From the NCBI GenBank assembly GCA_030749725.1, contig JASMJM010000173.1:4521-68520 (forward strand): a stretch of DNA of 64,000 nt, written 5' to 3'. Shown here piece by piece: positions 23,951 through 44,641 of the stretch (position 1 is its first letter; every line of letters begins with the position of its first letter). Both the position numbers and the translations under genes were made by a program. The stretch comes from Pseudomonadales bacterium (lineage in GTDB: Bacteria; Pseudomonadota; Gammaproteobacteria; Pseudomonadales; Azotimanducaceae). Below the pieces are notes generated by a model. The model had not been told where the DNA came from. It saw only the letters and a program-made list of their open reading frames with translations, and ran no database searches.

Positions 23951-25948
23951 GTGACCGAAGAAGTAGACGAGGGTTCCCCTGGGCTAACCCTGAAAACAAC
24001 TGGCAAACTCATCCTGCGTACCTGGCCGTATTACAGGCCCCAGTTAAAACATGTGATTACCTTCCTGCTCCTCAATATGTTCATGGGTGCGCTGCTGGGT
24101 GGCGCAACCTTTGTTGGATATGATCTCCTCAATAACAAAGTCTTCTTAGGTAAGTCCCTGCAACCCCTCCAGGCAGTTATTCTGGGGCTGGACGAGAGTT
24201 ATGTTCAGACCGGGGAGCCCGGTGACGCGGGGCCCGGCGCTGGTCAGGCCCAGGAGAATTCCGGTACCGAATCGGCAGACGTGTTTCTGTCAGACGATCA
24301 GAGACGCACCGTTCTATACAGAATGCTGGTCTGGGGTGCTGTCATCGGTGTCATGCTGATGGCTTCTCTTTCAGGGGTCTACTACTACATGGTTTGGATA
24401 CAGCAACGTATCAATCAGCATCTCAGGGTGACGATGCTGGAGCGCGCAGAAAACCTGTCTTTGAAGTTCCATGACCAGGCCCAAACCGGTGATGCGATCT
24501 ACCGGGTATATCAGGACAGCGCCACCATCACAAACGTCCTGCTGGAACTGATCACCAGACCCATGCGTATGATCGCCACGATGCTGTTCCTGGTGGTTGT
24601 GCTTACCTTCTTCAGTCCCTGGCTTGGCCTTCTGATCCTAATCGCCGTCATACCAGTCAGCTGCATGTTTCTGTTTTTTACGCCGAGAATACAAAGGCGC
24701 TCGAGACAGGCACGTGCGTCCAATAGCAATCTGACATCACGCATTCAAAGCGTGTTCGCAGCGATCAAGGTAATCAAGGCAAATCGCTCCGAGGGAATGG
24801 TAATCGAACAATTCAAGTTGGACTCACAGCTGGCACTGGACGCAGCATTTCATCTGCGTCTTGAAAATATCCTGCTAAGCACGGGCGTTATCATACTGAC
24901 GGTGGCCATATTGCTGCTGGCTGAATACCTGATGGCCGGCTGGGGTATTGCAGAGAAAGCCACCTATCTGGGAGGCGTAGTGGCACTGGTGGGGTTTGCC
25001 AGCTGGAACCTGGGTGCCTATCAGTCCGCTTCCAGCTCTGCTTCTGAAATGACCAGGCACAGCAGAGACCTCGTGAATGTCTGGGCAGCAGCGCAGGATC
25101 TGTCCGTGGGCCTTGAGCGGGCCTTTTACCTTTTGGACCAGGAACCCGAAGTGGTGGAAGCGGAACAGACGGTGGGCTTCCCGACGCCAATTCGGCAGGT
25201 CTCCTGGCAGGAAACCGGCTTTGCATACAAAACCGGGCAGCCGGTATTGAAGGGCGTAAATCTGCAGGCGAAAGCAGGATCGATCACCGCGATCGTCGGT
25301 ACTACTGGCGCAGGTAAGTCCACCCTGATGTCCTTGCTCCTGCGGCTATACGATCCTGACTCGGGGAGCATTCTCGTCAATGATACCAACATCAGGGACT
25401 TGGCCCTGGCCGACTTACGATCCAATGCTGCCATTGCGTTGCAGCAGAACGTGTTGTTCGCAACTACGGTCGCCGAGAATATCGCCTACGCTACACAGAA
25501 TGCATCACGCGCGGACATTGAAGCCGCAGCTGCGGTCGCTTGCGCCAACACATTTGTCGAGGAGATGCCACAGGGCTACGACACCGAACTCGGTGAGCGA
25601 GGCGGCAAATTGTCCACCGGGCAACGGCAACGCCTATCTATTGCCCGGGCCATTCTGCGCGACACGCCCGTTTTGATATTGGATGAACCCACTGCATCAC
25701 TTGATGCCAGGACCGAGCACGAAGTGCTGGAGAATCTGGCCGACTGGGGCAAGCATCGGGTGGTCTTTCTTATTACCCATAGACTGTCGACGATTCGCAA
25801 TGCCGACCAGATAGCATTCCTCGAAGATGGCCGGATCGTTGAAATGGGAAGTCATGACGAACTCATGAAACTCGGGGATGGTCGCTATCGCAGGTTTGTT
25901 AACGCTGAAGTTGAAGGGGTGGTAACTGCAGAAGGCAGTGAGTCATGA
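23951..25948 (+). CDS. ABC exporter fused permease/ATPase, subunit A1
   Basis: GTG at 23951 after AGGAG. Hydrophobic N-terminal half. Walker A GTTGAGKST, signature LSTGQRQR, Walker B ILILDEPTASLD, H-loop ITHRLST. Confidence 0.85.
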   Translation: MTEEVDEGSPGLTLKTTGKLILRTWPYYRPQLKHVITFLLLNMFMGALLGGATFVGYDLLNNKVFLGKSLQPLQAVILGLDESYVQTGEPGDAGPGAGQAQENSGTESADVFLSDDQRRTVLYRMLVWGAVIGVMLMASLSGVYYYMVWIQQRINQHLRVTMLERAENLSLKFHDQAQTGDAIYRVYQDSATITNVLLELITRPMRMIATMLFLVVVLTFFSPWLGLLILIAVIPVSCMFLFFTPRIQRRSRQARASNSNLTSRIQSVFAAIKVIKANRSEGMVIEQFKLDSQLALDAAFHLRLENILLSTGVIILTVAILLLAEYLMAGWGIAEKATYLGGVVALVGFASWNLGAYQSASSSASEMTRHSRDLVNVWAAAQDLSVGLERAFYLLDQEPEVVEAEQTVGFPTPIRQVSWQETGFAYKTGQPVLKGVNLQAKAGSITAIVGTTGAGKSTLMSLLLRLYDPDSGSILVNDTNIRDLALADLRSNAAIALQQNVLFATTVAENIAYATQNASRADIEAAAAVACANTFVEEMPQGYDTELGERGGKLSTGQRQRLSIARAILRDTPVLILDEPTASLDARTEHEVLENLADWGKHRVVFLITHRLSTIRNADQIAFLEDGRIVEMGSHDELMKLGDGRYRRFVNAEVEGVVTAEGSES

Positions 25949-27945
25949 GCGAAGCAGCACTTGCCACATCCACCACTGACAAATTGGCTTTCGATGATCG
26001 CGTAGATACCTCAACTGATATCTCATCCCTTGCATCACTCAAACTGCTTGGCCGTTCTTTGAATCTATTGAAAGATGTCAAACTTCTGTTCGCTGGCAAA
26101 TTTGTGTTTGCTGCTGTATCCATGTTCCCGGCTTTGGTAATCCCGTGGGTAGCCAAGATCATCATCGATCAGGTGCTGTTGCAGAAACCATTCGGCACAA
26201 CAGATGTTCGTTTCCCGCCATTCATGGACCCCTTTATTGACCTGGTTGGCGACATGGGCCCCATGGGAATCATGGCAGCGATTGTCCTCATGTATGGGCT
26301 ATTGCTTGTTCTATTCGGCACACGAGGCCCTGGCGGTGGCACTTACGTTTATCTGCCACAAGGCCAGGACTCTGCAACGCAATCGGAAGCCACGCTCAGT
26401 CAAGGCAGCAGCACAGCCGGAGGAATCTGGGGACTGTCTGAGATGATGGTCAACATACGATTGACTCAGCGCATGGCCAACAACTTGCGTACGCGGTTAT
26501 TTGAACGATTGACGCATCTTCCCATGACAACACTGGACGATCATCGCATTGGCGATTCTGTATACCGCGTCATGTATGACACACCACAGGTATCGGGCAT
26601 CTGCTACACCCTGACAATTACACCGGTACTCACCATTGCATTTGCAGCAATCTCACTCTACCTCATGCAATACAGCTATGGCGAAGTAGCGCCCGAATTG
26701 GTGTGGATTGCAGGTGGATTGATCCCGTTCGCGCTCGTCGTTACATTTCCGTTATCGGGTATTGCCAGGCGCCTTAATCAGGCAAGTCGTGCATCGGGTA
26801 CGGCCACCACCAATGCCATTGAAGAGAGCATGGATAATATCGCTGCGGTGCAGAGTCTGGGTGGCACTGAACAGGAAACGGAGAAATTCGAGGCCCGTAG
26901 CTCCGAGTCATTCAAACGATATCGATTGGTCTTCCTGTTCAACCAGATACTCTTTGTACTTGGCTTTATGTGCACTGGCGTTATGGGAATCTATGTGACC
27001 ATACAGATCGGCAACGGTATCATCGAAGGGATCATGTCGCCGGGTGACTTCGGTGTATTGATTGGACTGTTCTATTCTCTTGGTGCTGCTGCACTTCGAA
27101 TTGGTATGTATTGGATAACCCTGCAAAGTAATGTAGCAGCAGTGCGCAGAGTGTTCTTCTTTCTCGACTACAAGTCCGAAGATACCGACACAAAGGGCCA
27201 TACAATACCCCCAATTGAAACCGGCGTGACGCTGGATCACGTTGACTTCTCATACCCCAATCGACAGCAAGTGCTCAACGATATCAATCTTAAACTCTCG
27301 TTAGGTGAACTGATAGCAATTGTGGGGCCTACCGGCGCCGGCAAGACCAGTCTTGCATATTTGCTGCCGGGATTCCTACGGCCCACATCCGGTAGAATGC
27401 TGTTTGACGACACGGACGCAGCGAACGTAAACCTGGCCTCGTTGCGTGACCAGGTTTCCTATGTATTTCAGGAACACATACTGCTCGCCGAGTCCATTCG
27501 GGCTAATCTCCAACTGGCCAAGCCGCAGGCCACCGATGATGAAATCGTCACAGCATGCCGAACTGCGGGGGCGATGGAATTCATCAATACCTTGCCGGAT
27601 GGACTCGATACGATTCTGGGAAGATCCGGTGATACACTTTCAGTGGGGCAACAACAACGATTGTGCATCGCGCGGGGACTCATTCGGGACACCCGAATCC
27701 TGATCCTTGATGAACCCACAGCGGCCCTCGACCCGGAAACAGAAAATGCATTGGTGAGCGCACTGCTGGAAGCCGCCAAAGGGAAGCTGGTGATCATAAT
27801 TGCACACCGACTGTCAACTATTCGCAAAGCGGATCGCATCATTTTTCTCGAAGATGGCCAGGTGAAGGATGTCGGTAATCATGAGACACTCATGTCCCTT
27901 CCGGATGGCGCATATAAACAGTTCGTTGAATTGCAGAGCGGCTAG
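25945..27945 (+). CDS. ABC exporter fused permease/ATPase, subunit A2
   Basis: ATGA overlap with A1. GPTGAGKTS, LSVGQQQR, ILILDEPTAALD, IAHRLST. Confidence 0.85.
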   Translation: MSEAALATSTTDKLAFDDRVDTSTDISSLASLKLLGRSLNLLKDVKLLFAGKFVFAAVSMFPALVIPWVAKIIIDQVLLQKPFGTTDVRFPPFMDPFIDLVGDMGPMGIMAAIVLMYGLLLVLFGTRGPGGGTYVYLPQGQDSATQSEATLSQGSSTAGGIWGLSEMMVNIRLTQRMANNLRTRLFERLTHLPMTTLDDHRIGDSVYRVMYDTPQVSGICYTLTITPVLTIAFAAISLYLMQYSYGEVAPELVWIAGGLIPFALVVTFPLSGIARRLNQASRASGTATTNAIEESMDNIAAVQSLGGTEQETEKFEARSSESFKRYRLVFLFNQILFVLGFMCTGVMGIYVTIQIGNGIIEGIMSPGDFGVLIGLFYSLGAAALRIGMYWITLQSNVAAVRRVFFFLDYKSEDTDTKGHTIPPIETGVTLDHVDFSYPNRQQVLNDINLKLSLGELIAIVGPTGAGKTSLAYLLPGFLRPTSGRMLFDDTDAANVNLASLRDQVSYVFQEHILLAESIRANLQLAKPQATDDEIVTACRTAGAMEFINTLPDGLDTILGRSGDTLSVGQQQRLCIARGLIRDTRILILDEPTAALDPETENALVSALLEAAKGKLVIIIAHRLSTIRKADRIIFLEDGQVKDVGNHETLMSLPDGAYKQFVELQSG

Positions 27946-28019: not shown

Positions 28020-28808
28020 CTATCTTCTTGCCGTCATCCAGTCATAAATGCTGGAAAGATACTCAGCATCGTCACCCGATATCTGTGGGATCTCTTCCTT
28101 CTGGTTTGCCAACGCCTGGCGAGCAGCCAGGTAGGATACGCAGTAGGCCTCCAGATTTTCCATACGCCAGTAAGCCATCTCCAGGTGGAACGCCCGTGTG
28201 ATGATACCGTGATGTATCATCATCACAGTTGGATGATCTGTGCCAACGCGTCCCACAACATCACTCATCTCCGCACTGCCCGGTCTGCAAAACGGTGCTA
28301 ATCCCACCTCACCTACAAATACTTCACCTTCCGGGGTGAGAAAACGCGGCGGCGCTATCCCGGCGATCGCAAACCCTGTGGCCGTCGGGGGATGTGCATG
28401 GATACATGCTTTTGCCTGAGGTTGTCGCTTCATAATGCCAATATGGGTCATCACCTCGCTGGACCGTGCTCTGGTGCCGGCAAGTTGCGTACCTTCCATA
28501 TCGACCAGGCACATATCCGTCGTTTTCATATGTCCCTTGCTGATCATGGTCGGTGTACCAAGTACAAGATTGTCCCCGACCCTGATACTCAGATTGCCCC
28601 CGTTACCATCGACGAATGCCCTCTGCCAGAGACGTTGTCCCAAATCACACATCAGTTCTTTCAGTTTCTCGATCTCGGGAGAGTGAAAAAAAGTATCGAT
28701 TTCTGACTCGGTTTGTGCGTCAGCACCGGGGGTCCAGTTATATTGCGGGTCCGGCGTTTCGGGTTTCTGTTTCACTGTCTTCTCCAGGAAAAAACTTATT
28801 GTGATCAA
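28020..28808 (-). CDS. class II aldolase/adducin family protein (OtnC-like decarboxylase/aldolase)
   Basis: GNGGNLSIR, SSEVMTHIGI and HAHPPTATGFA (metal His cluster). The exact start is uncertain. Confidence 0.75.
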   Translation of the reverse strand: MITISFFLEKTVKQKPETPDPQYNWTPGADAQTESEIDTFFHSPEIEKLKELMCDLGQRLWQRAFVDGNGGNLSIRVGDNLVLGTPTMISKGHMKTTDMCLVDMEGTQLAGTRARSSEVMTHIGIMKRQPQAKACIHAHPPTATGFAIAGIAPPRFLTPEGEVFVGEVGLAPFCRPGSAEMSDVVGRVGTDHPTVMMIHHGIITRAFHLEMAYWRMENLEAYCVSYLAARQALANQKEEIPQISGDDAEYLSSIYDWMTARR

Positions 28809-28930: not shown

Positions 28931-30124
28931 TCAGGGTGTCCTTCGACGATGAAACTCGACAGTGTTTTCATCCAGCGTGAGTTTCTGTCGAGTTGCGGAG
29001 AAATAGGACGCTGCCTGAATCAGGGTAAGCATATTCTTAAGTCGCACAAAGCTGAGAACACGAACATCATCGAAATCATAGTTCAGCAGGGACTCGCGGT
29101 TAGCGCGACCTATGCGATTAATCTTGAAACACGCTTGCAGCATATCAGACAAAACATTTCGATTGCGACGCAATGGCTCCGTCGTTAGATATGCTTCAGG
29201 CTCACCAAATTCGGATTTGATGACCAACAACGAAAGCGGGCGATCGGCTTTTTCCGGCAATCTAACCGGCAAAAAACCGAAATGGATAAACACATCCAAC
29301 TCATGTGTGCCAGGAAAACCATACTCCGAGAAATCGGAATCAGGTAGGTATTTGAAGATAGTCTTACCATAGGGTGTATCACACATCTGGACAAGTTCGT
29401 AAACAGTGTAAGGCCTTTTGTTGTACATAAGCACACTGCTATCCCGTTGCCTGATAAGGAACCGGCTTGTTTCATCCCCGACCCAGGAAACCAGAATGTC
29501 GCGCTTGTCACCGGAACGTCCGGTCACAAGCAGCCCATTGCCTTTTGACGCAGCGCGGACCTTTTCCGTTAGAAGTTGGACGGACTCTTCCTCGGTTATC
29601 TCCAGGTTGTTGCTTGACCAGGGCGTTAGCAATACAGGTGTCAGTATTTCCGTTTCCAGCTCACAGTTAACAACGTCCCAGAGATGGCATTCAGTGTCGA
29701 CCGTTACGTTCTGGTCTGATTCGATGCTGCTCATATACTCCATGCTTTTTGCATACTTCTTTTGCAGTTTGATTGGATGAATCAAAATGAGGGAATCTTT
29801 CTTGATCCTGCGACCGGCAAGTTCAAGTATTTTCCCACCAACAAAAAGCGAGATTTCCGGATCGCCCAAATTTCTACTCAAACGCTTCTGGGTAGCATGT
29901 AGAGAAATATCTTCCTGAAGGACATGGCTGATATCTGTCAACTTCAGCGATTGAGATCCTAGAACACCCAGTATGAATTCTTTCACAAATCTGGTGGATA
30001 CTTTCCTCAGACCCGTGGAGATTTCCTCGATGAACGAGTCAAAATCGTCGTCCTTGCACAATTGTTCAATGTCTCGCATCTTACTTGACTCTGGCACTTC
30101 TAAGTCTGCGCGCCGGCCGGGCAC
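28931..30124 (-). CDS. hypothetical protein, possibly a degenerate IS4/IS701-like transposase derivative
   Basis: 397-aa ORF that is AT-richer than its neighbours. The layout recalls DDE transposases: N-terminal ...GVLGSQSLKLTDISHVL...KRLSRNL, mid LLVTGRSGDKRDIL...RFLIRQRD, C-terminal ...VRVLSFVRLKNMLTL. The expected catalytic D/D/E and YREK positions look substituted, and no terminal inverted repeats were found. Confidence 0.4.
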   Translation of the reverse strand: MPGRRADLEVPESSKMRDIEQLCKDDDFDSFIEEISTGLRKVSTRFVKEFILGVLGSQSLKLTDISHVLQEDISLHATQKRLSRNLGDPEISLFVGGKILELAGRRIKKDSLILIHPIKLQKKYAKSMEYMSSIESDQNVTVDTECHLWDVVNCELETEILTPVLLTPWSSNNLEITEEESVQLLTEKVRAASKGNGLLVTGRSGDKRDILVSWVGDETSRFLIRQRDSSVLMYNKRPYTVYELVQMCDTPYGKTIFKYLPDSDFSEYGFPGTHELDVFIHFGFLPVRLPEKADRPLSLLVIKSEFGEPEAYLTTEPLRRNRNVLSDMLQACFKINRIGRANRESLLNYDFDDVRVLSFVRLKNMLTLIQAASYFSATRQKLTLDENTVEFHRRRTP

Positions 30125-30285: not shown

Positions 30286-33048
30286 CTAGTCAGACTGAAT
30301 CACCACAGTGCCTGCGTCACCGTCGACTTCCAGGATCTGCCCGTTCTTCACTCGCCGGGTGATATTGCCCGTACCCACCACAGCAGGGATGCCATACTCC
30401 CGCGCAACAATGGAACCGTGGCCCAGAATGCCACCGATATCGGTGACCAGGCCGCTGGCGTGGGCAAAGAGTTGCGTCCAGGCAGGCGAGGTCATGGGGC
30501 ACACCAATATCGAACCCGGTCGCATCTGGTCGAATTCATCAGCGTTATGGATCACGCTGGCTTGACTCGTGATGGTCCCGGGGCTCACTGGAATACCCCT
30601 CAGCGTACCGCTGGAATCATCATTGATAAACTGCGTTTCCTTGAACTTGACGCCCGGATTTTCGCTAATCTCCGGCGGAATCGTGCCAGGGGGATGCAGA
30701 CGCCTGCGCGCCTCTCTCAATTCACGGCGCTCAGCGGCCAATTGTGCGTATTCCGGTATAGCGTTACCCCCTTGGCGCGCTTCCATGGCAGGTTCAATTT
30801 CGGAGGTATTGAGAAAATATATATCTTCTGAGGTTGCCAGTGTGCCGATATCAACCAGACGCTGCCCAAGCTCGGTTGCAATCGGCCGCAGCACAGGCCA
30901 GGCAGTACCCAGGACGAAACAGGACTCTTCCCGGATGGGATAGTACTTTCGCGTAAACCAAAGGCGGTACCGGAACTGCCAGTATTGCAGACCATCGAGC
31001 AACTCCTCGATGTCCTTCATGGCCTGTTCACGTTTACGGGTTGCCTGCTCCTCGTGTTGTTTCGGGTGGTAGTCCCTGTTCTGCACCATCGCCTTCAAGG
31101 TCACGAACAGCGTCGACGGATCTTCAATCTGCGTCGGTTCACCGAAATCCAGACTATAGCCCTGGTGACCATAGATCTGCAGATAGCTGTCGAGCGCCTC
31201 GAGTATCGGCCCGCTGTCGGGATGTGCCTGAAGCTCGCCCATCAGACGTTTTGCAGGGGTCGCAACGACAGTTTCAAAGAGTGATTTGCTGGCCCGGATC
31301 ATCTTGCAGATATCATATAAGTCGTCATTGGCCTGCATGATCCTCGACTTGAATCCAGAGAGGAATTGCCCACTGGTGAATTGGTGGTCGGGCAGGGTTT
31401 CCCTCAGAAAGCACTGCAGCTGATCGTCTGTGGATTTCGCAACACCAAAGGTGTGGCCGCCGTTGCTGCTCCAGTACCAACCTTCGGCAGCGGCCAATTC
31501 CCGAATCCCCGTCAGGAGCTGCTCATCCGGGGCAGTCTCTACGTCTACCCGCCGCCACTTCTCGGTGGCTGCCTCCAGTTCCGGAACGGCTCTTTCGCGC
31601 CAGTCAGCATGCTGCCGGTCGTTTACGGCAGTCTTGTTAAACGCAACGTACGTTGGATTGTCACTCTCTGGCATGGTCACCGCGTGGGCCAGATTATCCG
31701 TCGCCAAACCATCAGCCATCGTCTGAAAGTCGGCACGTTCCTGTTCTGTCAACTGGTCCAGGAACATCTGTAGATCATGCTGTTCCTGCGCTCTTCCCTC
31801 AGGGCTGCTGGTGGCTGCTTCTTTCTGGGCCTTGATTTCACGGCGAAACTGCTCATCGTTTGTCTGTGTGGCAAATCCCGCTATCTGAAATGCAAAGCCA
31901 TGCAGCGTCGTAAAGCCGGACCTACCGCCCGGTTTCCTGCCTGCCAGACCCTTATGGATGTACAACTCATCAAACAGTGGGAAAGTGGGATCCGGAACAT
32001 TTTCGATAAGCTGGCGACGGACCAGGCCCTTGATGCCTTCCGGAGCTTCCCACTGCACCTCGATAGGTTGAGGTGGCAGATTGGTGATCGGCCTGGATTG
32101 CAGCAGTGAAAGCTTGCCGTCTGCTATCGCCCACTCAATATCCTGGGGTAAGCCATCGAAGTGTTCTTCAACTTTGATGGCCAGGCTGGCCAACTCGCCG
32201 AGAAGAGCATCGGATAGTGACGACTGAGCACGCTCGTTTTCAGACACATCTTCCAAACGGGTGCCCTGCCCAGCATCGGAAATAACCTTCTGCTCCTTCG
32301 GACCGATGATCGTTTCCTTCACGGCCATGGAATTCCGATCCACGATGAACGTGTCCGGTGTCACCTGCCCTCCGACCACCGCTTCACCGAGGCCAAAACT
32401 CGCATTGATAATGAGTTCCGAACGTTCACCGGTGGCCGGGTTTGCGGTAAACAGGATGCCGGCCACATCTGCCGGCACCATGATCTGGACCACGACAGCC
32501 ATGGCGACCGAGCCCTGATCTATAGCATGCTCATGACGATAACTGATTGCCTGCACAGTCCAAAGAGAAGCCCAACAGTTTCGCACTGCCGCAAGCAGGG
32601 CTTCGGCGCCGCTGACATTCAGGTAGGTCTCCTGCTGACCTGCGAAGGAAAGCCCCGGCAAGTCCTCAGCGTTAGCTGATGAGCGCACCGCTACGGCTGG
32701 TGCTCGGCCCCCGGAAGGATCGACCAGTGCCGCATAGGCTTCGCTTAGCTCTGCAATGGTCTCTGCGGACAGATTATATTCGCCGATCAACTGTTGAATG
32801 GCTGTTGAGGCCCTTTCAAAGGACGCTCTGACAGCCGTAACTTCAGGCCTGGCAAGTTCCACTATCTTCGCCTGCAGATTGTTGTCAGCAACGAATGCCT
32901 TGTAGGCAGCAGTCGTTAGGTGAAATCCATCGGGCACAGAAAATCCCGCATTAACCATCCTGGCAAGTGATCTGCCCTTGCCACCAAGCACTTCAAGATC
33001 ACCATCAGTCGTCGCGAGGAGTCGTACATTCGTTATGTCGTCTTTCAT
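30286..33048 (-). CDS. Rph/PpsA-like phosphotransferase, paralog K2
   Basis: 920 aa, collinear with K1. GGKGRSLARM...VAVRSSANAEDLPGLSFAGQQETYLN at the N-terminus. CPMTSPAWTQLFAHASGLVTDIGGILGHGSIVAREYGIPAV at the C-terminus. Confidence 0.85.
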   Translation of the reverse strand: MKDDITNVRLLATTDGDLEVLGGKGRSLARMVNAGFSVPDGFHLTTAAYKAFVADNNLQAKIVELARPEVTAVRASFERASTAIQQLIGEYNLSAETIAELSEAYAALVDPSGGRAPAVAVRSSANAEDLPGLSFAGQQETYLNVSGAEALLAAVRNCWASLWTVQAISYRHEHAIDQGSVAMAVVVQIMVPADVAGILFTANPATGERSELIINASFGLGEAVVGGQVTPDTFIVDRNSMAVKETIIGPKEQKVISDAGQGTRLEDVSENERAQSSLSDALLGELASLAIKVEEHFDGLPQDIEWAIADGKLSLLQSRPITNLPPQPIEVQWEAPEGIKGLVRRQLIENVPDPTFPLFDELYIHKGLAGRKPGGRSGFTTLHGFAFQIAGFATQTNDEQFRREIKAQKEAATSSPEGRAQEQHDLQMFLDQLTEQERADFQTMADGLATDNLAHAVTMPESDNPTYVAFNKTAVNDRQHADWRERAVPELEAATEKWRRVDVETAPDEQLLTGIRELAAAEGWYWSSNGGHTFGVAKSTDDQLQCFLRETLPDHQFTSGQFLSGFKSRIMQANDDLYDICKMIRASKSLFETVVATPAKRLMGELQAHPDSGPILEALDSYLQIYGHQGYSLDFGEPTQIEDPSTLFVTLKAMVQNRDYHPKQHEEQATRKREQAMKDIEELLDGLQYWQFRYRLWFTRKYYPIREESCFVLGTAWPVLRPIATELGQRLVDIGTLATSEDIYFLNTSEIEPAMEARQGGNAIPEYAQLAAERRELREARRRLHPPGTIPPEISENPGVKFKETQFINDDSSGTLRGIPVSPGTITSQASVIHNADEFDQMRPGSILVCPMTSPAWTQLFAHASGLVTDIGGILGHGSIVAREYGIPAVVGTGNITRRVKNGQILEVDGDAGTVVIQSD

Positions 33049-33158: not shown

Positions 33159-35171
33159 TCAGCCGCTCTGCAGCTCGACAAAGGTTCTGTATGGACTATC
33201 CGGATTCGCCATCAGCTCTTCATGATTGCCAACATCACGAATCTCACCTTCTTCGAGAAAGACAATCCTGTCGGCCCTGCGAATCGTCGACAGGCGATGC
33301 GCAATGACGATGACCAGGCGGTCCTGGGCTGCAGCCCGCAGGGATTCGACCAGTTGACCCTCGGTGCGCGGATCGAGGGCCGCGGTCGGTTCATCAAGGA
33401 TCAGGATTCGCGCATCGCGGACCAGCCCACGAGCAATAGACAGACTTTGCTGCTGCCCAACGGACAGGGTGTCGCCGGAACGGCCAAGGACGCTGTCGAT
33501 GCCATCCGGCTTTGAGTCGATGAACTCCATACATCCGGCCGTCTCCAGTGCAGCCATCATCTCCGCCTCGCTTGCAGCGGGATTGGCCAGCAGCAAATTG
33601 TCGCGAATGCTCTCAGACAGGAGCAGGTGCTCCTGGAACACATAGGTCACCTGCTGTCGCAGCGAGTCGAGATCGACCTCGGATAGGTCCTTGCCGTCAA
33701 TGAGCACGCGGCCGGCTGTCGGCATCACCAACGACGGTATCAGGTAGGCGAGCGTGGTCTTGCCTGCGCCGGTGGGGCCGACCAGCGCCACCAGTTCGCC
33801 CATCGGCAATTCAAGATCGACGTTGGTGAGTGCGCGATGTCCGTCAGGATACTCAAAGTCGACCCCTTGGATGCTAACCCCGTCAGAGATGGTGCCCAGA
33901 TCCACTGTACCAGGCCGATCTTCTTCCGATTCATAGTCCACGAAGAAGAATACCCGGCGGACCGCGGCGATGGTCTCCTGCAGCTTGATCCACATGGCGC
34001 CAAAGAAACTGGCCGGCTCAACAATGCCCTTGTAAACCCCAAACAGCACGGCAAAGTCGCCGGGTGACATGGTGCCTTCAATGATCTGATCGCTGATGAG
34101 TATCGTGACGTAGATACCGGCGGTGCCCGTCGCTGCTCCGGCAATTGTGGCCACTACAATAACGACCGCCAGGGCGTAGCGTTCGCGCAGAAACGTGTGG
34201 CTACTCCGATCCGCAAACCGTTCTTCTTCCCGCCCCGTGCCGCCCAGGCTCTGCACGGCCCCAATGTTGCTCATGGATTCTTCCATGGCATTGGTAGTGG
34301 CGGCACCGGCGGCTCGCTTGTTCTGATTGGTTCGTCGCAACACGCCGGAAAAAGGAAAACAGATCGCAAACATGGCGGGAAACGTCGCCCAGGCGATCCA
34401 TATCAATTCAGGCGATATGTCACCATAGGAATATTGCAGAATGTATATATTGATGAGTGCACTCACCAGATATAAGAACGGCGTCAATGTCAGGTTGTAA
34501 GCGAGGTCGGGTGCGTGCGGCGCATCGTAGAGGACCCTATACACCGAGTCACCTATACGCTGGTCATCCAGTATGGTCATGGGCAGACGACTCAGACGGT
34601 CGAACAGGCGCGTGCGCAGGTGATTCGCCATGGTCTGGGTGAGTCGCACATTCACCATAAACTCCGCGACTCCCCAGATGCCACCACCACTACTACCACC
34701 GGAACTCAGGGCATTTTCAGCCTGGGTCGCGGCGTCCCTGCCCTCCTCCAATTGAGCACCCATCTTGCTGGACCGCATGCCTATCGTCACCAGCATAACG
34801 GCGTATATGATGGTCAGAGTGAGCATAATCTCGAGCGGACCCTTGCCATCCACGAAGTTCACGATCGGATTCATAAAGGGTGGATAGGCGACAGCAGTAT
34901 CACCAAAAGGGCGCTGCAATATGACATTGTCGATGACGATCTTCGCCATCCATGGCAGCAGCAGTACTGGAAACATCAGTCCCAACGCCAGCAGGAATTT
35001 AGCCAGGAAAAGACCCTTAGCACGCGTAATCAGCTGGATGCAACGTCCGATAATCGAGAGCGCCTCGATCGTGTTGATGTCCGATTGTACATCGACCCGG
35101 TCATCGAATGTGTTCTTGCCAAGAACCCTCTGAAGGATGGAATCCTGTTCTTTTATAGCGACTTCGCTCAT
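33159..35171 (-). CDS. ABC exporter fused permease/ATPase, subunit B2
   Basis: GPTGAGKTT, LSVGQQQS, ILILDEPTAALD. Shares DDQRIGDSVYRVLYD and the C-terminal FVELQSG with A2. Confidence 0.85.
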   Translation of the reverse strand: MSEVAIKEQDSILQRVLGKNTFDDRVDVQSDINTIEALSIIGRCIQLITRAKGLFLAKFLLALGLMFPVLLLPWMAKIVIDNVILQRPFGDTAVAYPPFMNPIVNFVDGKGPLEIMLTLTIIYAVMLVTIGMRSSKMGAQLEEGRDAATQAENALSSGGSSGGGIWGVAEFMVNVRLTQTMANHLRTRLFDRLSRLPMTILDDQRIGDSVYRVLYDAPHAPDLAYNLTLTPFLYLVSALINIYILQYSYGDISPELIWIAWATFPAMFAICFPFSGVLRRTNQNKRAAGAATTNAMEESMSNIGAVQSLGGTGREEERFADRSSHTFLRERYALAVVIVVATIAGAATGTAGIYVTILISDQIIEGTMSPGDFAVLFGVYKGIVEPASFFGAMWIKLQETIAAVRRVFFFVDYESEEDRPGTVDLGTISDGVSIQGVDFEYPDGHRALTNVDLELPMGELVALVGPTGAGKTTLAYLIPSLVMPTAGRVLIDGKDLSEVDLDSLRQQVTYVFQEHLLLSESIRDNLLLANPAASEAEMMAALETAGCMEFIDSKPDGIDSVLGRSGDTLSVGQQQSLSIARGLVRDARILILDEPTAALDPRTEGQLVESLRAAAQDRLVIVIAHRLSTIRRADRIVFLEEGEIRDVGNHEELMANPDSPYRTFVELQSG

Positions 35172-37186
35172 GGTCCTTCTCCGACATCACTGCCAGCGAT
35201 CTCCGCGTTAACGAAGCCACGGTACTTACCTGCTTCCTTGGACATCAGTTCGTCGTGCCGACCCTGTTCCACGATTCGACCATCCTCCAGGAAGGCAATC
35301 TCATCGGCATTGCGGATGGTGGACAGGCGATGTGTAATGAGGAATATCACTTTCCCCCGACCCCACTCCGACAGGTTGGCGAGTACCTGCTGCTCCGTCC
35401 TGGCATCCAATGAAGCAGTGGGCTCATCCAAAATCAGGATCTGTGTGTCGCGCACGATGGCCCGCGCAATTGATAGGCGCTGGCGTTGTCCGGCAGATAA
35501 TTTCCCACCGCGTTCTCCAAGTTCGGTGTCATACCCTTTCGGCATCGCCTTAATGAAATCGTCCGCACAAGCTATCCTGGCGGCGGCTTCGAGATCAGAG
35601 CGTTTGGCATTCGCTGCTGCATAGGCGATATTATTGGCCACAGTCCCTGCAAACAGCGTGTTCTGCTGCAATGCGATCGATGTGTTGGCCCGTATGTCAT
35701 CCACCGCCACATCTTTGAGATCGATGCCGTTGACCAGCAATTGCCCCCGGTCCGGGTCATAGAGTCGCAGCAACATGGACATCAAGGTTGACTTGCCGGC
35801 CCCGGTCGCACCGACAATGGCGGTCACCGTGCCCACCCCACCGCGCAGATCGATTCCTCGCAGCACTGGATGGGCGTCATCGTAACCAAAATACACATCG
35901 CGCCAGGTCGCCTCGATGATTGGTGACGGGAAGCTGACCGGTTCATCCGGATCCACTACGTCAAGCTTAAGGTCCAGAAGATAGAACGCCCGGTCCAAGG
36001 CGATGAACAGATCCTGCATCCTGGTCCAAAGGCCAACGAAGAAGCCGCCGGTCTGGGTGAGATCACTAACTCGCTTCCTGGCAATCTCAAAGGCCCCCAG
36101 ATTCCACAGAACAAAGCCAAGGAATGACGCTGCCCAGGCGCCCAGAAACGTCTCACGTTCTTCAACTACAAAGGTCACCATGATGTATTCGGCGGATACC
36201 AGGGTGACTCCCCCTAGCAAAGCCACCATTGCAGTCAGGATCACCATATCCAATCGAAGAAAGTACGCGGTGTTTAGTGCATTCACGGAATCCCGGTTGA
36301 AACGATCGAACACCCGGGCCTCCGCGCGATTGGCTTTGACAATTTTGATCGCGGCAAAGACCTCCTGCAGGCGCGAAGTAAGATCGCTGTTGGCCATCCG
36401 ATTGTTCATGGCACGACGCCGGATGCGCGGGGTATAGACGACAATCACCCAAACTACCGGCACGCCGACAACAATAATCATGGCTGCAAAAATCGGGTCG
36501 AACGCCATGACAAAAAGCAGCGCAAACACGATCCAGCCGAGCGTCATGATCGGGTAGACTATGCCACTCTGCAGCAGGCTCATGATCATCGCGCTATCCT
36601 GGTAGACCCTGAAGATCGCATCACCCACCCTGGCATTATCGTGATACTTGAGTGACAAGGACTCCGCCCGTTGCACCATGGCCACCCTCAGATTCTGGTT
36701 GATGCTCTGCCAGACCCACATGGTGTAGTAGGGAATCAGGAGCCATACGAGTCCTGCGCCCACAGCACCCAGGATGCCCCAGATGATCAACCGGTTACGC
36801 ACTGTTTTGCGTTGATCCCAGGTCAGTTCCGGTTCAACATTTTCGAGTTGCACCGTTTTTGAGGCCGACTGCTTGCCATTCAGCCGTTCCGGGTCATCGG
36901 TGACATACTCCTCGCCCACAAACAGCACCATGGCCTGAATTGGCTGCAGCTTCTCACCAACCAGCACCTTGTTGGTGAACAGATCCGTGCCGACAAATAA
37001 AGTGACCAACCCGCCGAGACCACCGACAAAGAACAACGAGCCCAAAAAGATCAAATGCTTCAGCATCGGCCGCATGTACGGCCAGGTCTTCCATGCCAGT
37101 GCTGCCATTTTTCGAAAGCTCAACTTCGGCGTTTCGGCTTCGGCATTGCCTTGCTGGTATCCCTGGATCAATCCTAGTTCACTCAT
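35168..37186 (-). CDS. ABC exporter fused permease/ATPase, subunit B1
   Basis: ATGA overlap with B2. GATGAGKST, LSAGQRQR, ILILDEPTASLD. Shares KTWPYMRP and INQNLR motifs with A1. Confidence 0.85.
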   Translation of the reverse strand: MSELGLIQGYQQGNAEAETPKLSFRKMAALAWKTWPYMRPMLKHLIFLGSLFFVGGLGGLVTLFVGTDLFTNKVLVGEKLQPIQAMVLFVGEEYVTDDPERLNGKQSASKTVQLENVEPELTWDQRKTVRNRLIIWGILGAVGAGLVWLLIPYYTMWVWQSINQNLRVAMVQRAESLSLKYHDNARVGDAIFRVYQDSAMIMSLLQSGIVYPIMTLGWIVFALLFVMAFDPIFAAMIIVVGVPVVWVIVVYTPRIRRRAMNNRMANSDLTSRLQEVFAAIKIVKANRAEARVFDRFNRDSVNALNTAYFLRLDMVILTAMVALLGGVTLVSAEYIMVTFVVEERETFLGAWAASFLGFVLWNLGAFEIARKRVSDLTQTGGFFVGLWTRMQDLFIALDRAFYLLDLKLDVVDPDEPVSFPSPIIEATWRDVYFGYDDAHPVLRGIDLRGGVGTVTAIVGATGAGKSTLMSMLLRLYDPDRGQLLVNGIDLKDVAVDDIRANTSIALQQNTLFAGTVANNIAYAAANAKRSDLEAAARIACADDFIKAMPKGYDTELGERGGKLSAGQRQRLSIARAIVRDTQILILDEPTASLDARTEQQVLANLSEWGRGKVIFLITHRLSTIRNADEIAFLEDGRIVEQGRHDELMSKEAGKYRGFVNAEIAGSDVGEGP

Positions 37187-37726: not shown

Positions 37727-39684
37727 TCAGTCGAGATAAGTCGCAAGAAACTCTTCCATTTCTTCAAACAACAGAATTCGGTTCTTTTGCAGGCTGAGGT
37801 GGTGGTCACCATCTTCAAGTTCTACATATCTGTAGTTCTTTGGTTTCTGACGTTTGAGCGCCCGATTCATCTTGCGGCCGTGATCAATTGTTACCGTTCT
37901 GTCTTCCGTTCCGTGCACCATCAGCACGGGGATCTTGATTCTACTCGCGAGTTTGACTGGTGAATAGAGACCACGTTCCTTACGGCTGGTTCCTAATAGC
38001 TTTCTTACTGCGCTACCGCCAATGAATTTCATTTGGTTGCTAACGAGTATATTCAGGTCTGTGACACCAGCAAAGCTCACCGCACACTTGAAATGTCCAT
38101 CATCTCTGGCAGCAGCCATCAGAGCAGCATAGCCACCGTAACTTGCACCGACGATACAGGCTTGATCATCCTTGTCCAGCCCTTGGAACTTAAGCCACTT
38201 AAGTCCATCCACGATATCATCCTGCATGGTTTTACCCCAGTTGAGCAGCCCCTGACTCATAAAATCATGACCGTATCCATAGGAGCCACGGAAGTTCATC
38301 TGCAACACCTGATATCCCCGGCTTGCAAAGAACTCTGTCCAGTAGTCAAATTTGGTATTGTCACGAGCGATCGGGCCCCGTGGGGGAAGATGACTGTCGG
38401 TAAGGGTTCTGACGAGCCTGCCCACGAAGGCCGAGCGAGAAATCCCTCAATTTCGGTCCCATCAGATGCCTCATAGGTGACCATTTTCTTACCGTGAATG
38501 TTTGATTCATCGAGTCCAGGATAGAGTCTGGCCAATCTGGTGACCGTAGTTCCCTGGCCAAGGTAGAATGTGCCCGGGTCTTTCGTTCCAGAGGTCATCA
38601 CAATATAGGTTTGTTCGGTTCTGTCCATGTCCAGTACGAGAACTTGTCTGTCCTTGAATGTATTCTTTAGCGCACGCTCAAAAGCCTTGTAGCTGGGGTC
38701 CCAGAACGAGATGCCACCCAACATGGTACTTCGTATGCCAATGACTGCACCGCTCTTTGCTGAATAAAACAAACTGCCGGAGACATCATAGAGGGGATGG
38801 GCGTAGATCAGTTTTTGGTCACCCGGTTCACGCACATCTATCTTGAAGATTGAGTCCCGTCCATCATGTAAGGTGACGATATAGAGCGTGTAACGGTCCG
38901 GGTCGAATCCCAGGATTTTGATCTTATCCTGTGAATAGGATTCAAAGTCCCAGAGCGGTTCGAACTCTCTTTCTCCCGGCGCTTTATACAGTACTCTGTT
39001 GGTGGCACCTTTTCGGTAGAAGCCAATGCGGATTTCTTGCTGACGATCCGTCAACCATCTGCGGATGTCACGCTTAAAGTTCTGCACAACCTTGCCGCAA
39101 GTGTTTCTCTGTAGATTGACTCTGCAGACCTGGGGCTCCCCCGGACTTGCCAGATCAACACTCAACAGAATGTGGTCCGGATCGTTTTCGAGGATATCCA
39201 CAATCCGATCAAGATACTGCGGGCTCCAATCACCGGGTCTGTGTTTGATAATTCGTCGGACATTCGTCCCATCTGCATTGGCAACCAGCATTGTTGTGCC
39301 ATAGATCTTGGTGTTCTGAACGTTGGTCATGAAACGACTGCTGATCAGCAATTCGCGATTGTTTGCCCACTTCACCCAGTTGTATCCAACTTTGCTGTTG
39401 CTGTTTGTGAAAACCACCTGCCGTTGCTTGGAAACCAGATCCATTGTGACGATAAGCTCTATTCCGGATTCGCTCTGGATCAACGCTATACGCTGACCAT
39501 CCGGTGATAGCGCGATGCCTTTGACTCTGGGAAGTGCTGCGTAGGTCGAAAGTGGAAGCCTTTCAGGATGTTGTGCTGCGAGAAGGTCGGGAATCGCAAA
39601 GCATAGCAGTGTTGTCAGAATAAGCAGGGAGTGCCCTAACAGCGAGGTGTGCTTCATATTGTACTTAGTTGCTGTGATTGGCAT
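37727..39684 (-). pseudogene. S9 (prolyl oligopeptidase/DPP-type) serine peptidase disrupted by a 1-nt frameshift
   Basis: ORF 38296..39684 (signal peptide plus propeller-like N-domain) ends ...TVIFPHGARS. ORF 37727..38425 continues in another frame with GPIARDNTKFDYW...GASYGGY...HGTEDRTV...GDHHL (Ser/Asp/His triad). Adding one G to the G4 run (plus-strand C-run 38376-38379) restores the canonical HGGP. Confidence 0.8.
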
Positions 39685-40019: not shown

Positions 40020-40203
40020 GCGAATTCATCAGCAGCAGTGGGATGATCATACCACCATACCGATCTGTCCTATGACCACGCCTGCTGGGCCCAGCTGTTT
40101 TCCAACGCAATTACTCTGGTGACAGACATGGGTAGCATTCTTGCCCACGGTTCTATCGTGGCGCGGAATCCGGTTGTTTCTATGGTGAGAGGATTGATTG
40201 TAA
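40020..40203 (+). pseudogene. relic of the 3' end of a third Rph-like phosphotransferase gene (K3)
   Basis: nt 40063-40166 align with the K1 His-domain DNA. They translate as ICPMTTPA then, after a 1-nt deletion near 40085, WAQLFSNAITLVTDMGSILAHGSIVAR. Similarity is lost after ARE. The relic lies directly upstream of ABC C1. Confidence 0.7.
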
Positions 40204-42618: not shown

Positions 42619-44641
42619 CACAATGGACGTCAAAACGTCACTCAGGTCAACGGAAGAGAGTCTGGACCAAGCAGCACATGCACTGGATGTTCATACTGAC
42701 ACCAACTTTTGGGAGGCCATTCGAATAGTTGGTCGCGGCATTACCTACATCAGATATTTCAAGGTACGATTCCTGCTGAGAGCTTTGTTATTCTGGCTGA
42801 GTCTAATGTCACCTCTCATTCTTCCCTGGCCAATCAAGATCGTCATCGACAACGTCATTCTTGGATTGCCCATGGGTCAGGGTACTGTCTACCCTCCTTA
42901 TTTTGTGCCCTTTATCGAGTTTCTGGATGGCAGGGATCCCGTGGAAATCATGGCCTGGATCGTTGTCCTCGCAGCGTCCTGGGTCATTCTCTTTGGCGCC
43001 TTTGGTACTGGAGCAGCTCAGACGTGGACGGAAGGTTTCCTTGCTGAGGGTCACGACACCGCCACACGAACCGAAAACGAAGCGAATGAAGCGGCCAGCA
43101 AATTATCCGGTTTGGTTGGCCTGATTGAGTTCAGACTGGTTCTCAGGCTCACCCAGGCCGTGAATCACCTGATTCGAGTGCAGTTGTTTGAGCGGATCAA
43201 TTCACTGTCCATGAAAGAGCTAAACGATCAACGGATCGGTGACAGCGTATACCGAATCATGTACGACACACCATCGATCACCAACATATTCTATCAGGCA
43301 GTCCTGTCACCGGTATCGGCTGTGTGGACCTTCTGCGTCGTGCTGGCAGTGATGTCCTACAGTTACGGCGACGCACCTGAATTGATCTGGCTGGTGTTGC
43401 TCATGCTGCCGTTACAAACAATCGCCATGACTCCTTTCTTCCGTCCCATGAGGCGACGCGCTCAAGCCAGTCGTGCCGCCGGATCTGTTACCACTGGCAA
43501 TATCGAGGAAGGCATGAGCAACGTGCTTGCCGTTCAAAGTCTCGGTGGCAACAAGCGCGAACGCCAGCGTTTTGGCAAGGTCAGCAACGAATCCTTTAGA
43601 CGATTCAGGGGACAGATACTGGTGGATATTCTCCGGGGAGTATCCTCAAAGGCGGCCGGTGGTTTGCTCGGACTGCTCGCTTTCTACATGATCACCAGCA
43701 GAGTCATCGAGGGTATGTTGACACCCGGTGATTACGGTGTGCTGCTATATTATTTCCTGTGGCTAGGCGGTTCACTAACCGCTCTTCCCTATGTGTGGTA
43801 CCGCATCCAGGAAAGTATTCCCGGTATCCGACGCGTCTTCTTCATCATGGATTTACCTAACGAGGTAATGCGTGGCGGAATAGATATTCCACAGATTGAG
43901 GATGCAATTGAATTCAAAGACGTTGGCTACACTTACACCGATGGACGCAGGGCACTGAGTGGTATAAACCTATCCACCCGGATTGGGCAGATCGTCGCGT
44001 TTGTCGGCCCAACCGGCGCAGGCAAAACCACCCTGGCCTATCTGGTGCCCGGCTACTATGAACCAACAGAAGGAAATGTGTTGGTGGACGGAGTCGATCT
44101 GAGTGAGATATCCCTCGCCAGCCTTCGACAGCAGGTTTCCTATGTATTTCAGGAATCCCAGTTATTCTCAGATTCAATCCTGGACAACATTCGTTACGGT
44201 AAACCGAATGCAACGCTCGAAGAGGTCGAGCAAGCCGCGCGTATTGCCGGTGCTGACGACTTTATCAAGGCACTGCCGGATGGATATGATACGCGCCTTG
44301 GAACAGTCACCAGCAAAATCTCCGTGGGCCAAAAACAGAGAATTGCTATTGCCCGGGGCTTGCTCAAGGATTCCAGCATCCTGATCCTCGATGAACCCAC
44401 ATCTGCTCTGGATCCTGAAACAGAGGCTTACCTTGTGAACGCTTTACATGAAGCCGCCAAGAACAAACTCGTCATCATCATTGCTCACCGCCTTTCTACC
44501 ATCGCGCATGCAGACACAATCGTATTCCTCAAGCAAGGTGAGATACTGGAGCAGGGATCCCACCAAGAGCTGTTGGCTGATCCCGAAGGGGCATATCGGC
44601 ATTATCTGATGTTGCAGGCTGCTGACACAACGACGGTATAA
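42602..44641 (+). CDS. ABC exporter fused permease/ATPase, subunit C2
   Basis: Start at ATG 42602 or 42611, overlapping the C1 end. GPTGAGKTT, ISVGQKQR, ILILDEPTSALD. NDQRIGDSVYRIMYD is shared with A2/B2. Confidence 0.8.
   Translation: MAAMTDTMDVKTSLRSTEESLDQAAHALDVHTDTNFWEAIRIVGRGITYIRYFKVRFLLRALLFWLSLMSPLILPWPIKIVIDNVILGLPMGQGTVYPPYFVPFIEFLDGRDPVEIMAWIVVLAASWVILFGAFGTGAAQTWTEGFLAEGHDTATRTENEANEAASKLSGLVGLIEFRLVLRLTQAVNHLIRVQLFERINSLSMKELNDQRIGDSVYRIMYDTPSITNIFYQAVLSPVSAVWTFCVVLAVMSYSYGDAPELIWLVLLMLPLQTIAMTPFFRPMRRRAQASRAAGSVTTGNIEEGMSNVLAVQSLGGNKRERQRFGKVSNESFRRFRGQILVDILRGVSSKAAGGLLGLLAFYMITSRVIEGMLTPGDYGVLLYYFLWLGGSLTALPYVWYRIQESIPGIRRVFFIMDLPNEVMRGGIDIPQIEDAIEFKDVGYTYTDGRRALSGINLSTRIGQIVAFVGPTGAGKTTLAYLVPGYYEPTEGNVLVDGVDLSEISLASLRQQVSYVFQESQLFSDSILDNIRYGKPNATLEEVEQAARIAGADDFIKALPDGYDTRLGTVTSKISVGQKQRIAIARGLLKDSSILILDEPTSALDPETEAYLVNALHEAAKNKLVIIIAHRLSTIAHADTIVFLKQGEILEQGSHQELLADPEGAYRHYLMLQAADTTTV

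Follow-up and report, generated by a model that had tools for sequence, protein, structure and literature searches.

Three paralogous ABC transporter operons and Rph-type dikinase genes in one genomic neighborhood of a Pseudomonadales bacterium

We analyzed 64,000 nucleotides (nt) of DNA from a Pseudomonadales bacterium (assembly GCA_030749725.1, contig JASMJM010000173.1, positions 4,521 to 68,520), referred to here as the window. It encodes three paralogous pairs of fused permease-ATPase proteins of the ABC transporter type (pairs A, B, and C), two large kinases with the domain order of rifampin phosphotransferase (RPH), K1 and K2, and the relic of a third, K3. We tentatively favor reading the region as a shared accessory neighborhood that is prone to gene gain and loss and in which coupling of the kinase (K) and ABC genes is facultative. 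Such a neighborhood would carry three ancient paralogous ABC operons and multi-copy Rph-type dikinases (K1, K2, and the K3 relic). Coupling would have been fixed as a gene cluster in the clade sister to pair A (clade D) and as the string B1-B2-K2 in this lineage, and not as a universal two-part module.

The ABC gene pairs, the dikinases, and their relics

Six proteins in the window combine an ABC_membrane with an ABC_tran domain, and their genes form three adjacent pairs. The list of open reading frames (ORFs), Pfam, and tblastn agree on these assignments, in line with an earlier sequence-only reading of the window, which had placed three paralogous pairs of the heterodimer type here. Pair A is encoded on the + strand by A1 (23951-25948, 665 amino acids (aa)) and A2 (25945-27945, 666 aa). 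The longest ORF of A1 opens at a GTG at 23858; the start at 23951 is backed by the public gene call and by the onset of homology to the orthologs. The nearest ortholog of A2, in locus L032, is 80% identical. Pair B lies on the - strand and consists of B1 (35168-37186, 672 aa), identified from its ORF, Pfam, tblastn, and the alignment, and B2 (33159-35171, 670 aa); a protein identical to B2 is present on a 152-kb metagenome scaffold. Pair C is on the + strand, with C1 (40204-42618, 804 aa) starting at a GTG and C2 (42602-44641) coding for 679 aa from the ATG at 42602, its longest ORF opening at a TTG at 42554. The alignment gives C1 about 190 additional N-terminal residues with several hydrophobic segments. 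This extension is kept in orthologs, and the 804-aa ORF is considered real because they match from residue 1-2. The genes overlap by 4, 4, and 17 nt within pairs A, B, and C, which agrees with the 4-17 nt counted earlier.

Like subunits of different pairs are 42-55% identical by tblastn (A1 is 52% identical to B1 and 42% to C1, A2 55% to B2 and 43% to C2), compared with 30-34% for every first against every second subunit. Whole pairs were thus duplicated, and anciently. A recent segmental duplication of a K-ABC unit is ruled out, as the paralogs share 42-55% and K follows B2 but precedes C1. In a six-way alignment, Walker A, the Q-loop, the signature, Walker B with its catalytic Glu, and the H-loop are consensus in all six nucleotide-binding domains (NBDs). 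The sequence-only reading had called these domains canonical, and the subunit motifs it quoted are all present in the alignment, including the FVELQSG ends of A2 and B2. Its GD..YR..YD motifs fall inside the generic ABC_membrane domain of Pfam, and they appear to be variants of the common intracellular loop 1 (ICL1) motif and not a special signature.

The best PDB matches of the ABC proteins are generic ABCB proteins (ABCB1), HlyB, and MsbA, and none of the six reaches an NCBIfam cut-off. MsbA was rejected, with TIGR02203 scores of 297-347 bits against a cut-off of 602 (the NF008381 cut-off is 867), and so was CydDC, with scores of 217-236 bits against 435 for CydD and 218-239 against 329 for CydC, and no cytochrome bd genes among the scanned neighbors. 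Membership of these two families, which the sequence-only reading had named as grounds against it, is thus not borne out, and judging from the scores the proteins appear to belong to no characterized equivalog. All six have the features of type IV (ABCB-like) half-transporters, namely the fused domains and the full set of NBD motifs. The diverged first- and second-subunit genes are adjacent and overlapping or nearly so, being paired automatically in 71 of the 80 related loci described below. These features are best explained by a heterodimer: each operon probably codes for two ABCB-like half-transporters (type IV fold) that pair up and have consensus sequences at both ATP sites. The fused domains are shared with SmdAB/MdlAB, TM287/288, BmrCD, and MsbA, and the two adjacent, overlapping genes are arranged as in heterodimeric exporters. 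Many heterodimeric exporters carry one degenerate ATP site, whereas both are consensus here. Also unlike known ABCB exporters, the window proteins have extra length both before the Pfam ABC_membrane match and in its early part, to which the hydrophobic N-terminal extension of C1 adds.

K2 (30286-33048, - strand, 920 aa) begins 110 nt downstream of B2, with which it shares the strand, and K1 (11368-13941, + strand, 857 aa), a paralog with 50% identity by tblastn, lies 10 kb upstream of A1. Both have an N-terminal PPDK_N ATP-grasp domain (PF01326; E = 8e-96 for K2 and 5e-97 for K1) and a PEP-utilizers swivel domain (PF00391) at the extreme C-terminus (residues 843-913 of 920 in K2 and 781-851 of 857 in K1). 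The precomputed Pfam annotation of K2 contains an Rph_4th domain as well. K1 and K2 have the catalytic His in the Rph-type motif GG..HG/A.(I/V)AR, in K2 within GHGSIVAREYG; the K2 segment around it, GGILGHGSIVAREYG, aligns with GGLMTHGAVIAREYG of RPH and is invariant across 22 homologs. By sequence, the closest PDB match of K2 is the Listeria RPH (E = 3e-101), with residues 20-330 and 573-917 aligned. An AlphaFold2 model of K2 from a 22-sequence alignment (pLDDT 79.5, pTM 0.74) has an ATP-grasp domain, an all-helical center (approximately residues 395-800), and a swivel domain that is small and rich in beta structure. Foldseek aligned the model with RPH (5HV1) over 943 columns (E = 1e-41) and its ATP-grasp part with the ATP-binding domain of 5HV6 at a TM score of 0.87-0.91; HpeI (9GOJ) is also among the fold matches.

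The phosphoenolpyruvate (PEP) synthase 2OLS matches the K2 model over 337 columns, in the ATP-grasp part alone, and the fold matches of PpsA and PPDK cover the ATP-grasp or swivel parts and nothing more. A true PEP synthase (PpsA/PPDK) was rejected, as the swivel domain is C-terminal, neither a PF02896 match nor a TIM barrel is present, and TIGR01418 scores 387-393 bits against 740. The Pfam order, the model, and Foldseek thus uphold the earlier description of an Rph architecture that lacks a TIM barrel. An orthologous rifampin resistance gene was rejected too: the middle domain is divergent, and the Rph equivalog cut-offs are missed (NF041857, 418 bits for K2 and 433 for K1 against 999; NF000283, 307 and 328 against 1700). 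Domain order and model place K1 and K2 in the small-molecule dikinase superfamily, where they have the Rph architecture and are not demonstrable Rph orthologs.

The 110-nt gap between B2 and K2 holds no terminator-like site in our scans, where promoter and terminator matches were at the level of shuffled sequence. Given the common strand, the gap, and the missing terminator-like site, B1-B2-K2 looks like an operon. The sequence-only reading had noted both this adjacency and that of K3 and C1, and they were confirmed. It had also linked K1 to pair A; K1 does lie 10 kb to the left, but the linkage is weak because seven genes stand between.

The K3 relic (40051-40196, + strand) is a frameshifted swivel-His fragment of a K1-like gene, about 115-150 nt long and recognized by tblastn (E about 1e-10) and translation. 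It retains GSILAHGSIVAR, and its stop overlaps the GTG start of C1. Positions 40051-40101 read TTIPICPMTTPAGPSCF and, after a 1-nt deletion, 40083-40196 read CWAQLFSNAITLVTDMGSILAHGSIVARNPVVSMVRGL. Its DNA is 84-88% identical to positions 13716-13830 of K1 and clearly less like K2. No comparable K relic was found in the 80 related loci.

ABC genes have left relics as well. Between the C2 stop and the short-chain dehydrogenase gene SDR2 (44735-45547, + strand), which lies directly downstream of C2, is a decayed NBD fragment of an A2/B2-type subunit with signature and Walker B (44632-44766, + strand). It reads DGITAILG...LNRDTRILMLDAPTAADDPQ, contains an in-frame stop, and is 49% identical to A2 residues 552-598 by tblastn; it is evidence of a lost or recombined ABC gene. 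A second relic, of an ABC second-subunit 3' end and an NBD fragment, lies upstream of the paralogous dehydrogenase gene SDR1 (21372-22376, + strand; the two proteins are 55-58% identical). It spans 21355-21505 on the + strand and is paralogous to 44569-44705, a stretch made up of the C2 3' end and part of the NBD fragment, the latter matching its counterpart at 21450-21505. Three collinear direct repeats (D6, D8, and D3) link the two stretches at a constant spacing of about 23.2 kb. The same paralogous block, consisting of an ABC second-subunit 3' end, an NBD fragment, and a short-chain dehydrogenase gene, is therefore present twice, and the copy at SDR1 has no ABC pair of its own. The non-coding fragment of the block is about as conserved (74-77%) as the coding DNA of the dehydrogenases, and the long SDR1 ORF passes in frame through the relic at 21355-21505. 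Therefore a fourth ABC pair and a third kinase were evidently lost here. An S9 prolyl-oligopeptidase-type gene between pair B and the K3 relic (37727-39684, - strand) is broken up: its N-terminal part (462 aa, no Pfam match) and its Peptidase_S9 part (232 aa) are encoded by separate ORFs that overlap, likely a frameshift or pseudogene. The K3 relic, the two NBD relics, and the split peptidase show gene birth and death in this neighborhood.

Dikinase genes near related ABC pairs

We scanned one genome per GTDB species with a search seeded on transmembrane-domain motifs specific to second subunits. The 80 loci returned are all from marine gammaproteobacterial metagenome-assembled genomes, with two or three loci on several chromosomes; their hosts belong to GTDB Pseudomonadales, Candidatus Azotimanducaceae, Porticoccaceae/SAR92, Woeseiaceae, and sponge-derived bins. 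The ABC subfamily was thus recovered from marine Gammaproteobacteria only and is multi-copy per genome. A neighbor-joining tree of second subunits separates clades C (24 loci), B (20), D (19), A' (12), and E (4) from clade A, the window pair with L032, to which clade D is sister. In clade E (L063-L066) the first- and second-subunit homologs are about 2.3-5 kb apart and do not overlap, and a C-type pair follows about 5.5-6.7 kb downstream.

A K gene is encoded within the roughly 10-kb flanks of the ABC pair in 14 of the 80 species-level loci. Clade D accounts for eleven of these, out of its 19 loci, 17 of which have enough flank. Clades B, C, and A' contribute one each: L015, with K 3.5 kb upstream (1 of 20), L081, with K 3.4 kb downstream on the opposite strand (1 of 24), and L051, with K 7 kb downstream (1 of 12). 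Clades E and A have none (0 of 4 and 0 of 1). On the K tree, K1 groups with the K beside the B-type pair of L015.

In clade D, 11 species-level loci and the metagenome contig L097 have K on one strand and, on the other, genes for GH32, a YfcE-type metallophosphoesterase of about 250 aa, ABC1, ABC2, and often DUF3089. The string from GH32 to a sulfatase in L046 has gaps of -8, -4, -26, 12, and -4 nt, consistent with an operon. Neither GH32 nor the phosphodiesterase carries a signal peptide; DUF3089 bears a membrane anchor at its N-terminus. The K genes of clade D form a monophyletic group, and by eye their tree appears to track the ABC tree, suggesting that the cluster was inherited as a unit across bins labeled Woeseiaceae, SAR92, and Cellvibrionales. 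The outer flanks of the cluster differ in the deepest members (L046, L062, L068, and L097). GH32 and the phosphodiesterase are kept where K is absent in L048 and L053, and one subclade has none of the three. This cluster is the strongest evidence for a functional tie of K and ABC genes.

For pair B the adjacency is rare. Among B orthologs from the protein database, no K lies downstream in L006 and L007, and in L004 one is found 6 kb upstream. Orthologs of K2 (69-83% identical) have no ABC pair within 10 kb in L001, L002, L008, L010, L174, L175, and L176/L177, as far as the contigs reach, and on one 4.33-Mb chromosome the K2 and B2 orthologs are about 290 kb apart. The B1-B2-K2 order recurs in one relative, L178, where B2 is 87% identical and a K2 ortholog, 82% identical over the 88 residues present on the contig, starts 74 nt after B2; the 20 other B-type loci do not have this order. 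Because it is found in L178 and absent from the other K2 ortholog contexts, B1-B2-K2 is a young arrangement that was maintained at least briefly. Adjacency of the K2 and K3 kind is essentially limited to this lineage and L178, its closest sampled relative. A metagenome scan on K motifs listed mostly distant PPDK_N/Rph-like loci, with no ABC association except on the clade-D-type contig L097; the close relatives among the matches listed were L094-L097 and L100 only.

Pairs of K copies within a few kb of each other, tandem or divergent (L002, L008, L175, L177, and L047), and pairs of ABC operons (L006, L026, L063-L066, and the window) are each at least as common as K with ABC. In L174, on a 4.33-Mb chromosome, the K2 ortholog (6668-9787) comes immediately after genes for a DDE transposase and a phage-type integrase, which hints that K genes move with mobile DNA.

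We also examined which other genes accompany K and the ABC pairs. Orthologs of K2 are found with a second K and a YfcE-type phosphodiesterase, and downstream with a short-chain dehydrogenase or MFS transporter, a Y_phosphatase3, a 515-aa metallophosphoesterase, and another Y_phosphatase3. Members of these families are also encoded in the window, chiefly on its left side. Clustering of the neighbors at 71 loci gave one short-chain dehydrogenase family at 23, K at 17, and the phosphodiesterase at 16, directly upstream of ABC1 in 13 of them. One cluster of TonB-dependent receptors is within 10 kb of the ABC pair at 11 of the 71 loci and directly adjacent at 4. The window string of K1, a TPR protein, an FG-GAP/ASPIC protein, a TonB-dependent receptor, and pair A is mirrored in L015 as K, B-type pair, receptor, FG-GAP/ASPIC, and TPR. 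The gene-order map shows the window to be a shuffled version of the clade-D neighborhood. The steadier partners of K are phosphatases, short-chain dehydrogenases, and further K copies.

Possible roles of the K and ABC genes

RPH, PigC/RedH/HapC, and the two-component HpeHI/AcvAB, CreHI, and PpsAB make up one dikinase family that uses a swivelling phospho-histidine (PMC4844700, PMC12167813, PMC13534948). Like RPH of Listeria monocytogenes (5FBS, 5HV1; PMC4844700), K combines an N-terminal ATP-grasp domain, a helical middle, and a swivel His at the extreme C-terminus. K differs from RPH in being only about 25-27% identical, with residues 330-573 of K2 unaligned by sequence and a score below half of the Rph cut-off. 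Also unlike RPH, K genes are multi-copy and found in Gram-negative marine bacteria beside phosphatases, with no evidence for rifamycin as a substrate. With HpeHI/AcvAB, CreHI, and PpsAB, K shares the dikinase chemistry, the domain set, and the genomic logic of kinase, enzymes, and phosphatase (PMC12167813, PMC9618137); it is a single chain, as RPH is, and not two-component. In the Hpe pathway phosphorylation starts catabolism, later enzymes accept the phospho-intermediate only, and dephosphorylation falls to a dedicated phosphatase (PMC9618137). Unlike in the Hpe, Cre, and Pps systems, no carboxylase or P450 partners were seen here, and GH32, the 3-oxo-tetronate kinase OtnK, and an aldolase suggest non-phenolic substrates. 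PigC/RedH/HapC (PMC13534948) share PPDK_N and the C-terminal swivel with K; the prodiginine ligase PigC/RedH was rejected as an identification, at 377-391 bits against 1300-1350, and no pig/red or other prodiginine biosynthesis genes are found nearby. Our searches of the dikinase literature uncovered no report of such an enzyme paired with two ABC half-transporters, in keeping with the sequence-only reading, which knew of no characterized system of this kind. Each component is an uncharacterized member of a known family.

Synteny, distribution, fold, paralogy, and anatomy are shown by the analysis; the substrate class, the transport direction, and any hand-over from K to the transporter are inferred parts of the reading we tentatively favor. 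By homology, K would move the beta-phosphate of ATP to the swivel His and then to a hydroxyl of an organic small molecule, yielding AMP and phosphate. Partner phosphatases would later take the phosphate off, as in catabolic dikinase pathways, and the ABC pair may carry compounds of this class, phosphorylated or not, through the inner membrane. The partner families that recur with K, and that would take part in such a neighborhood, are YfcE-type, Y_phosphatase3, short-chain dehydrogenases, PhyH, a putative cyclase, DUF3604/sulfatase, and a TonB-dependent receptor. Sets of kinase, dehydrogenase, and phosphatase seem to fit the logic of catabolic dikinases better than antibiotic inactivation or export detoxification. 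The three repeated phosphorylate-and-export modules proposed by the sequence-only reading were overstated, as K1 is 10 kb away, the K2 and K3 adjacencies are lineage-confined, and the partners of K are rather phosphatases. Adjacency of kinase and exporter across genomes, which that reading had named as a test, does occur in clade D and in L178, and elsewhere is near chance.

Several points weigh against facultative coupling. Outside clade D, K is near an ABC pair in 3 of 61 loci, a rate close to that expected by chance for a 4.5-Mb genome with roughly 5-10 copies of K, a copy number that we assume. In clade D, K is divergent from the ABC genes and not co-transcribed with them, and conservation of the cluster may partly be shared ancestry, as many members are related and the wider neighborhood is also syntenic. 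The Hpe phosphatase HpeD is HAD-type, whereas YfcE-type and Y_phosphatase3 enzymes are found here. GH32, 3-oxo-tetronate kinase, class II aldolase, and sulfatases suggest sugar-like or other polar substrates over phenolics.

It is somewhat unlikely that K and the ABC pairs have no functional link, both families having expanded independently and piled up in recombination-prone accessory regions, with adjacency a by-product of duplication, deletion, and rearrangement. The low count outside clade D is what this would predict, as are the frequent K-K and ABC-ABC pairs, the relics of both kinds of gene, the K2 ortholog beside an integrase and a transposase, and the toxin-antitoxin and AAA_14/DUF4143 genes nearby. 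The clade-D cluster, however, is kept across family-level divergence while its outer flanks differ, K is the second commonest neighbor family of the pairs (17 of 71), and there are at least six distinct K-ABC arrangements, spanning three K clades and four ABC clades.

A genuine two-step system is also conceivable, if doubtful. In it K would tag a hydroxylated organic compound with phosphate, and the ABC heterodimer would carry it over the inner membrane with or without the tag, either outward as a conjugate or inward so that it can be trapped. On this view the full, ancestral arrangement would be the clade-D cluster (K, GH32, YfcE-type phosphodiesterase, ABC1, ABC2, and DUF3089), and B1-B2-K2 would be a minimal derivative.

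We consider it similarly doubtful that the genes form a dedicated detoxification or self-resistance module, in which K phosphorylates a xenobiotic or endogenous metabolite and the adjacent ABC heterodimer exports the phospho-product. B1-B2-K2 on one strand with its 110-nt gap and no terminator-like site would fit such a module, L178 keeps the order with a 74-nt gap, the K3 relic abuts C1, and K stays beside the ABC operon in clade D. RPH itself is a resistance enzyme (PMC4844700). Yet the adjacency is missing in 19 of the 20 other B-type loci, 23 of the 24 C-type loci, and every K2 ortholog context examined except L178, and K scores far below the Rph cut-off (418-433 against 999 bits), its central substrate domain unaligned by sequence. 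With no signal peptide on phosphodiesterase and GH32, phosphate would be removed inside the cell, and a cytoplasmic glycosidase and phosphodiesterase in the transporter operon do not seem to fit simple export of a phospho-product. No biosynthetic genes were seen among the annotated genes of the 64-kb window, and antibiotic self-resistance inside a biosynthetic cluster is ruled out on this ground. Streptomycin-6-phosphate is an example of self-protection by phosphorylation, export, and dephosphorylation. That scheme matches the concept of kinase, exporter, and phosphatase; here the enzyme families are different, the phosphodiesterase has no signal peptide, and there is no biosynthetic cluster.

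An import-and-trap role is quite improbable. YbtPQ and IrtAB are exporter-fold importers, heterodimeric half-transporters that work with no binding protein, downstream of a TonB-dependent receptor. If the ABC pairs were importers of this kind, fed by TonB-dependent receptors, phosphorylation by K would trap or activate the substrate for catabolism. K, TPR, FG-GAP/ASPIC, receptor, and ABC pair are together in the window (pair A) and in L015 (B-type), the receptor cluster is near the pair at 11 of 71 loci and adjacent at 4, MFS/GPH-type transporters follow K2 orthologs elsewhere, and in clade D cytoplasmic GH32 and phosphodiesterase genes are co-transcribed with the ABC genes. For catabolic dikinases a trapping role has been suggested, in which phosphorylation retains substrates that have entered the cell by diffusion (PMC12167813). 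Against this, the ABC proteins show no specific similarity to exporter-fold importers, their best PDB matches being generic ABCB, HlyB, and MsbA; no siderophore genes are present, and transport direction is not readable from sequence. TonB-dependent receptors are very numerous in such genomes, so that their proximity is weak evidence.

Returning to facultative coupling, if K and ABC proteins do cooperate, they would provide the first example of a dikinase of the Rph family that works together with its own dedicated transporter, and some dissolved organic compounds would be handled by phosphorylation in abundant marine Gammaproteobacteria, including sponge-associated bins. Even with no coupling, a "rifampin phosphotransferase" annotation in these environmental genomes is not to be equated with rifamycin resistance, the dikinases have phosphatases and short-chain dehydrogenases as their steadier partners, and clade D offers a defined, testable conserved cluster.

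Other genes of the window

The left part of the window codes for a PhyH protein (1023-1670, Pfam), two tandem Y_phosphatase3 proteins (1798-3369, + strand, Pfam), a family that follows K2 orthologs in other genomes, and a protein of an unmatched family common to clade D (3509-4303, - strand; no match in Pfam or PADLOC). The YfcE-type metallophosphoesterase (4639-5388, + strand; Pfam Metallophos_2) scores above the NCBIfam cut-off for the YfcE subfamily and is 52-61% identical to the copies in L046 and L008. In clade D this family immediately precedes ABC1, and elsewhere its members neighbor K2 orthologs. A putative cyclase (5355-6287), DUF3604 (6419-8512), a sulfatase (8543-9940), and an AAA_14/DUF4143 ATPase (10022-11206) follow, with K1 next. 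AAA_14/DUF4143 genes recur beside K genes or ABC pairs in L001, L006, and L177. Between K1 and pair A, Pfam and the gene-order map place the TPR protein, the FG-GAP/ASPIC protein, and the TonB-dependent receptor (14774-21161), and then SDR1, whose family is the commonest near these ABC pairs. OtnK (22457-23887, - strand), above its NCBIfam cut-off, adjoins A1, and a class II aldolase/decarboxylase-like gene (28020-28808, - strand) is near A2. Both are parts of a four-carbon acid-sugar pathway, and homologs recur at the edges of clade-D loci.

Downstream of K2 is a gene for a 397-aa protein, w397 (28931-30124, - strand). It has no match in Pfam, NCBIfam, PADLOC, or the PDB, even with a 9-sequence profile; homologs at 24-35% identity are encoded in 11 related loci, and the family recurs in clade-D neighborhoods. 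There it stands side by side with the family of 3509-4303 (c7, then w397, then PhyH). The lowest GC content of the window (0.487) is in the 28-30 kb stretch. Rfam and tRNA searches of the window found none. A role in anti-phage defense was rejected, as the five unannotated ORFs tested had no PADLOC match. In L175 (14203-20843) a Wadjet-like set of DUF3375, JetB, AAA_23/SbcC-type, and JetD_C genes lies about 1.5 kb from a divergent K-K pair. A PIN-domain toxin gene (45590-46021, - strand) is just past SDR2, and pairs of PIN and PhdYeFM genes are likewise found on the flanks of K genes in L002 and L176. Across the convergent 3' ends of SDR1 and OtnK (22350-22469), a 60-nt direct repeat occurs in tandem, its copies being 88% identical.

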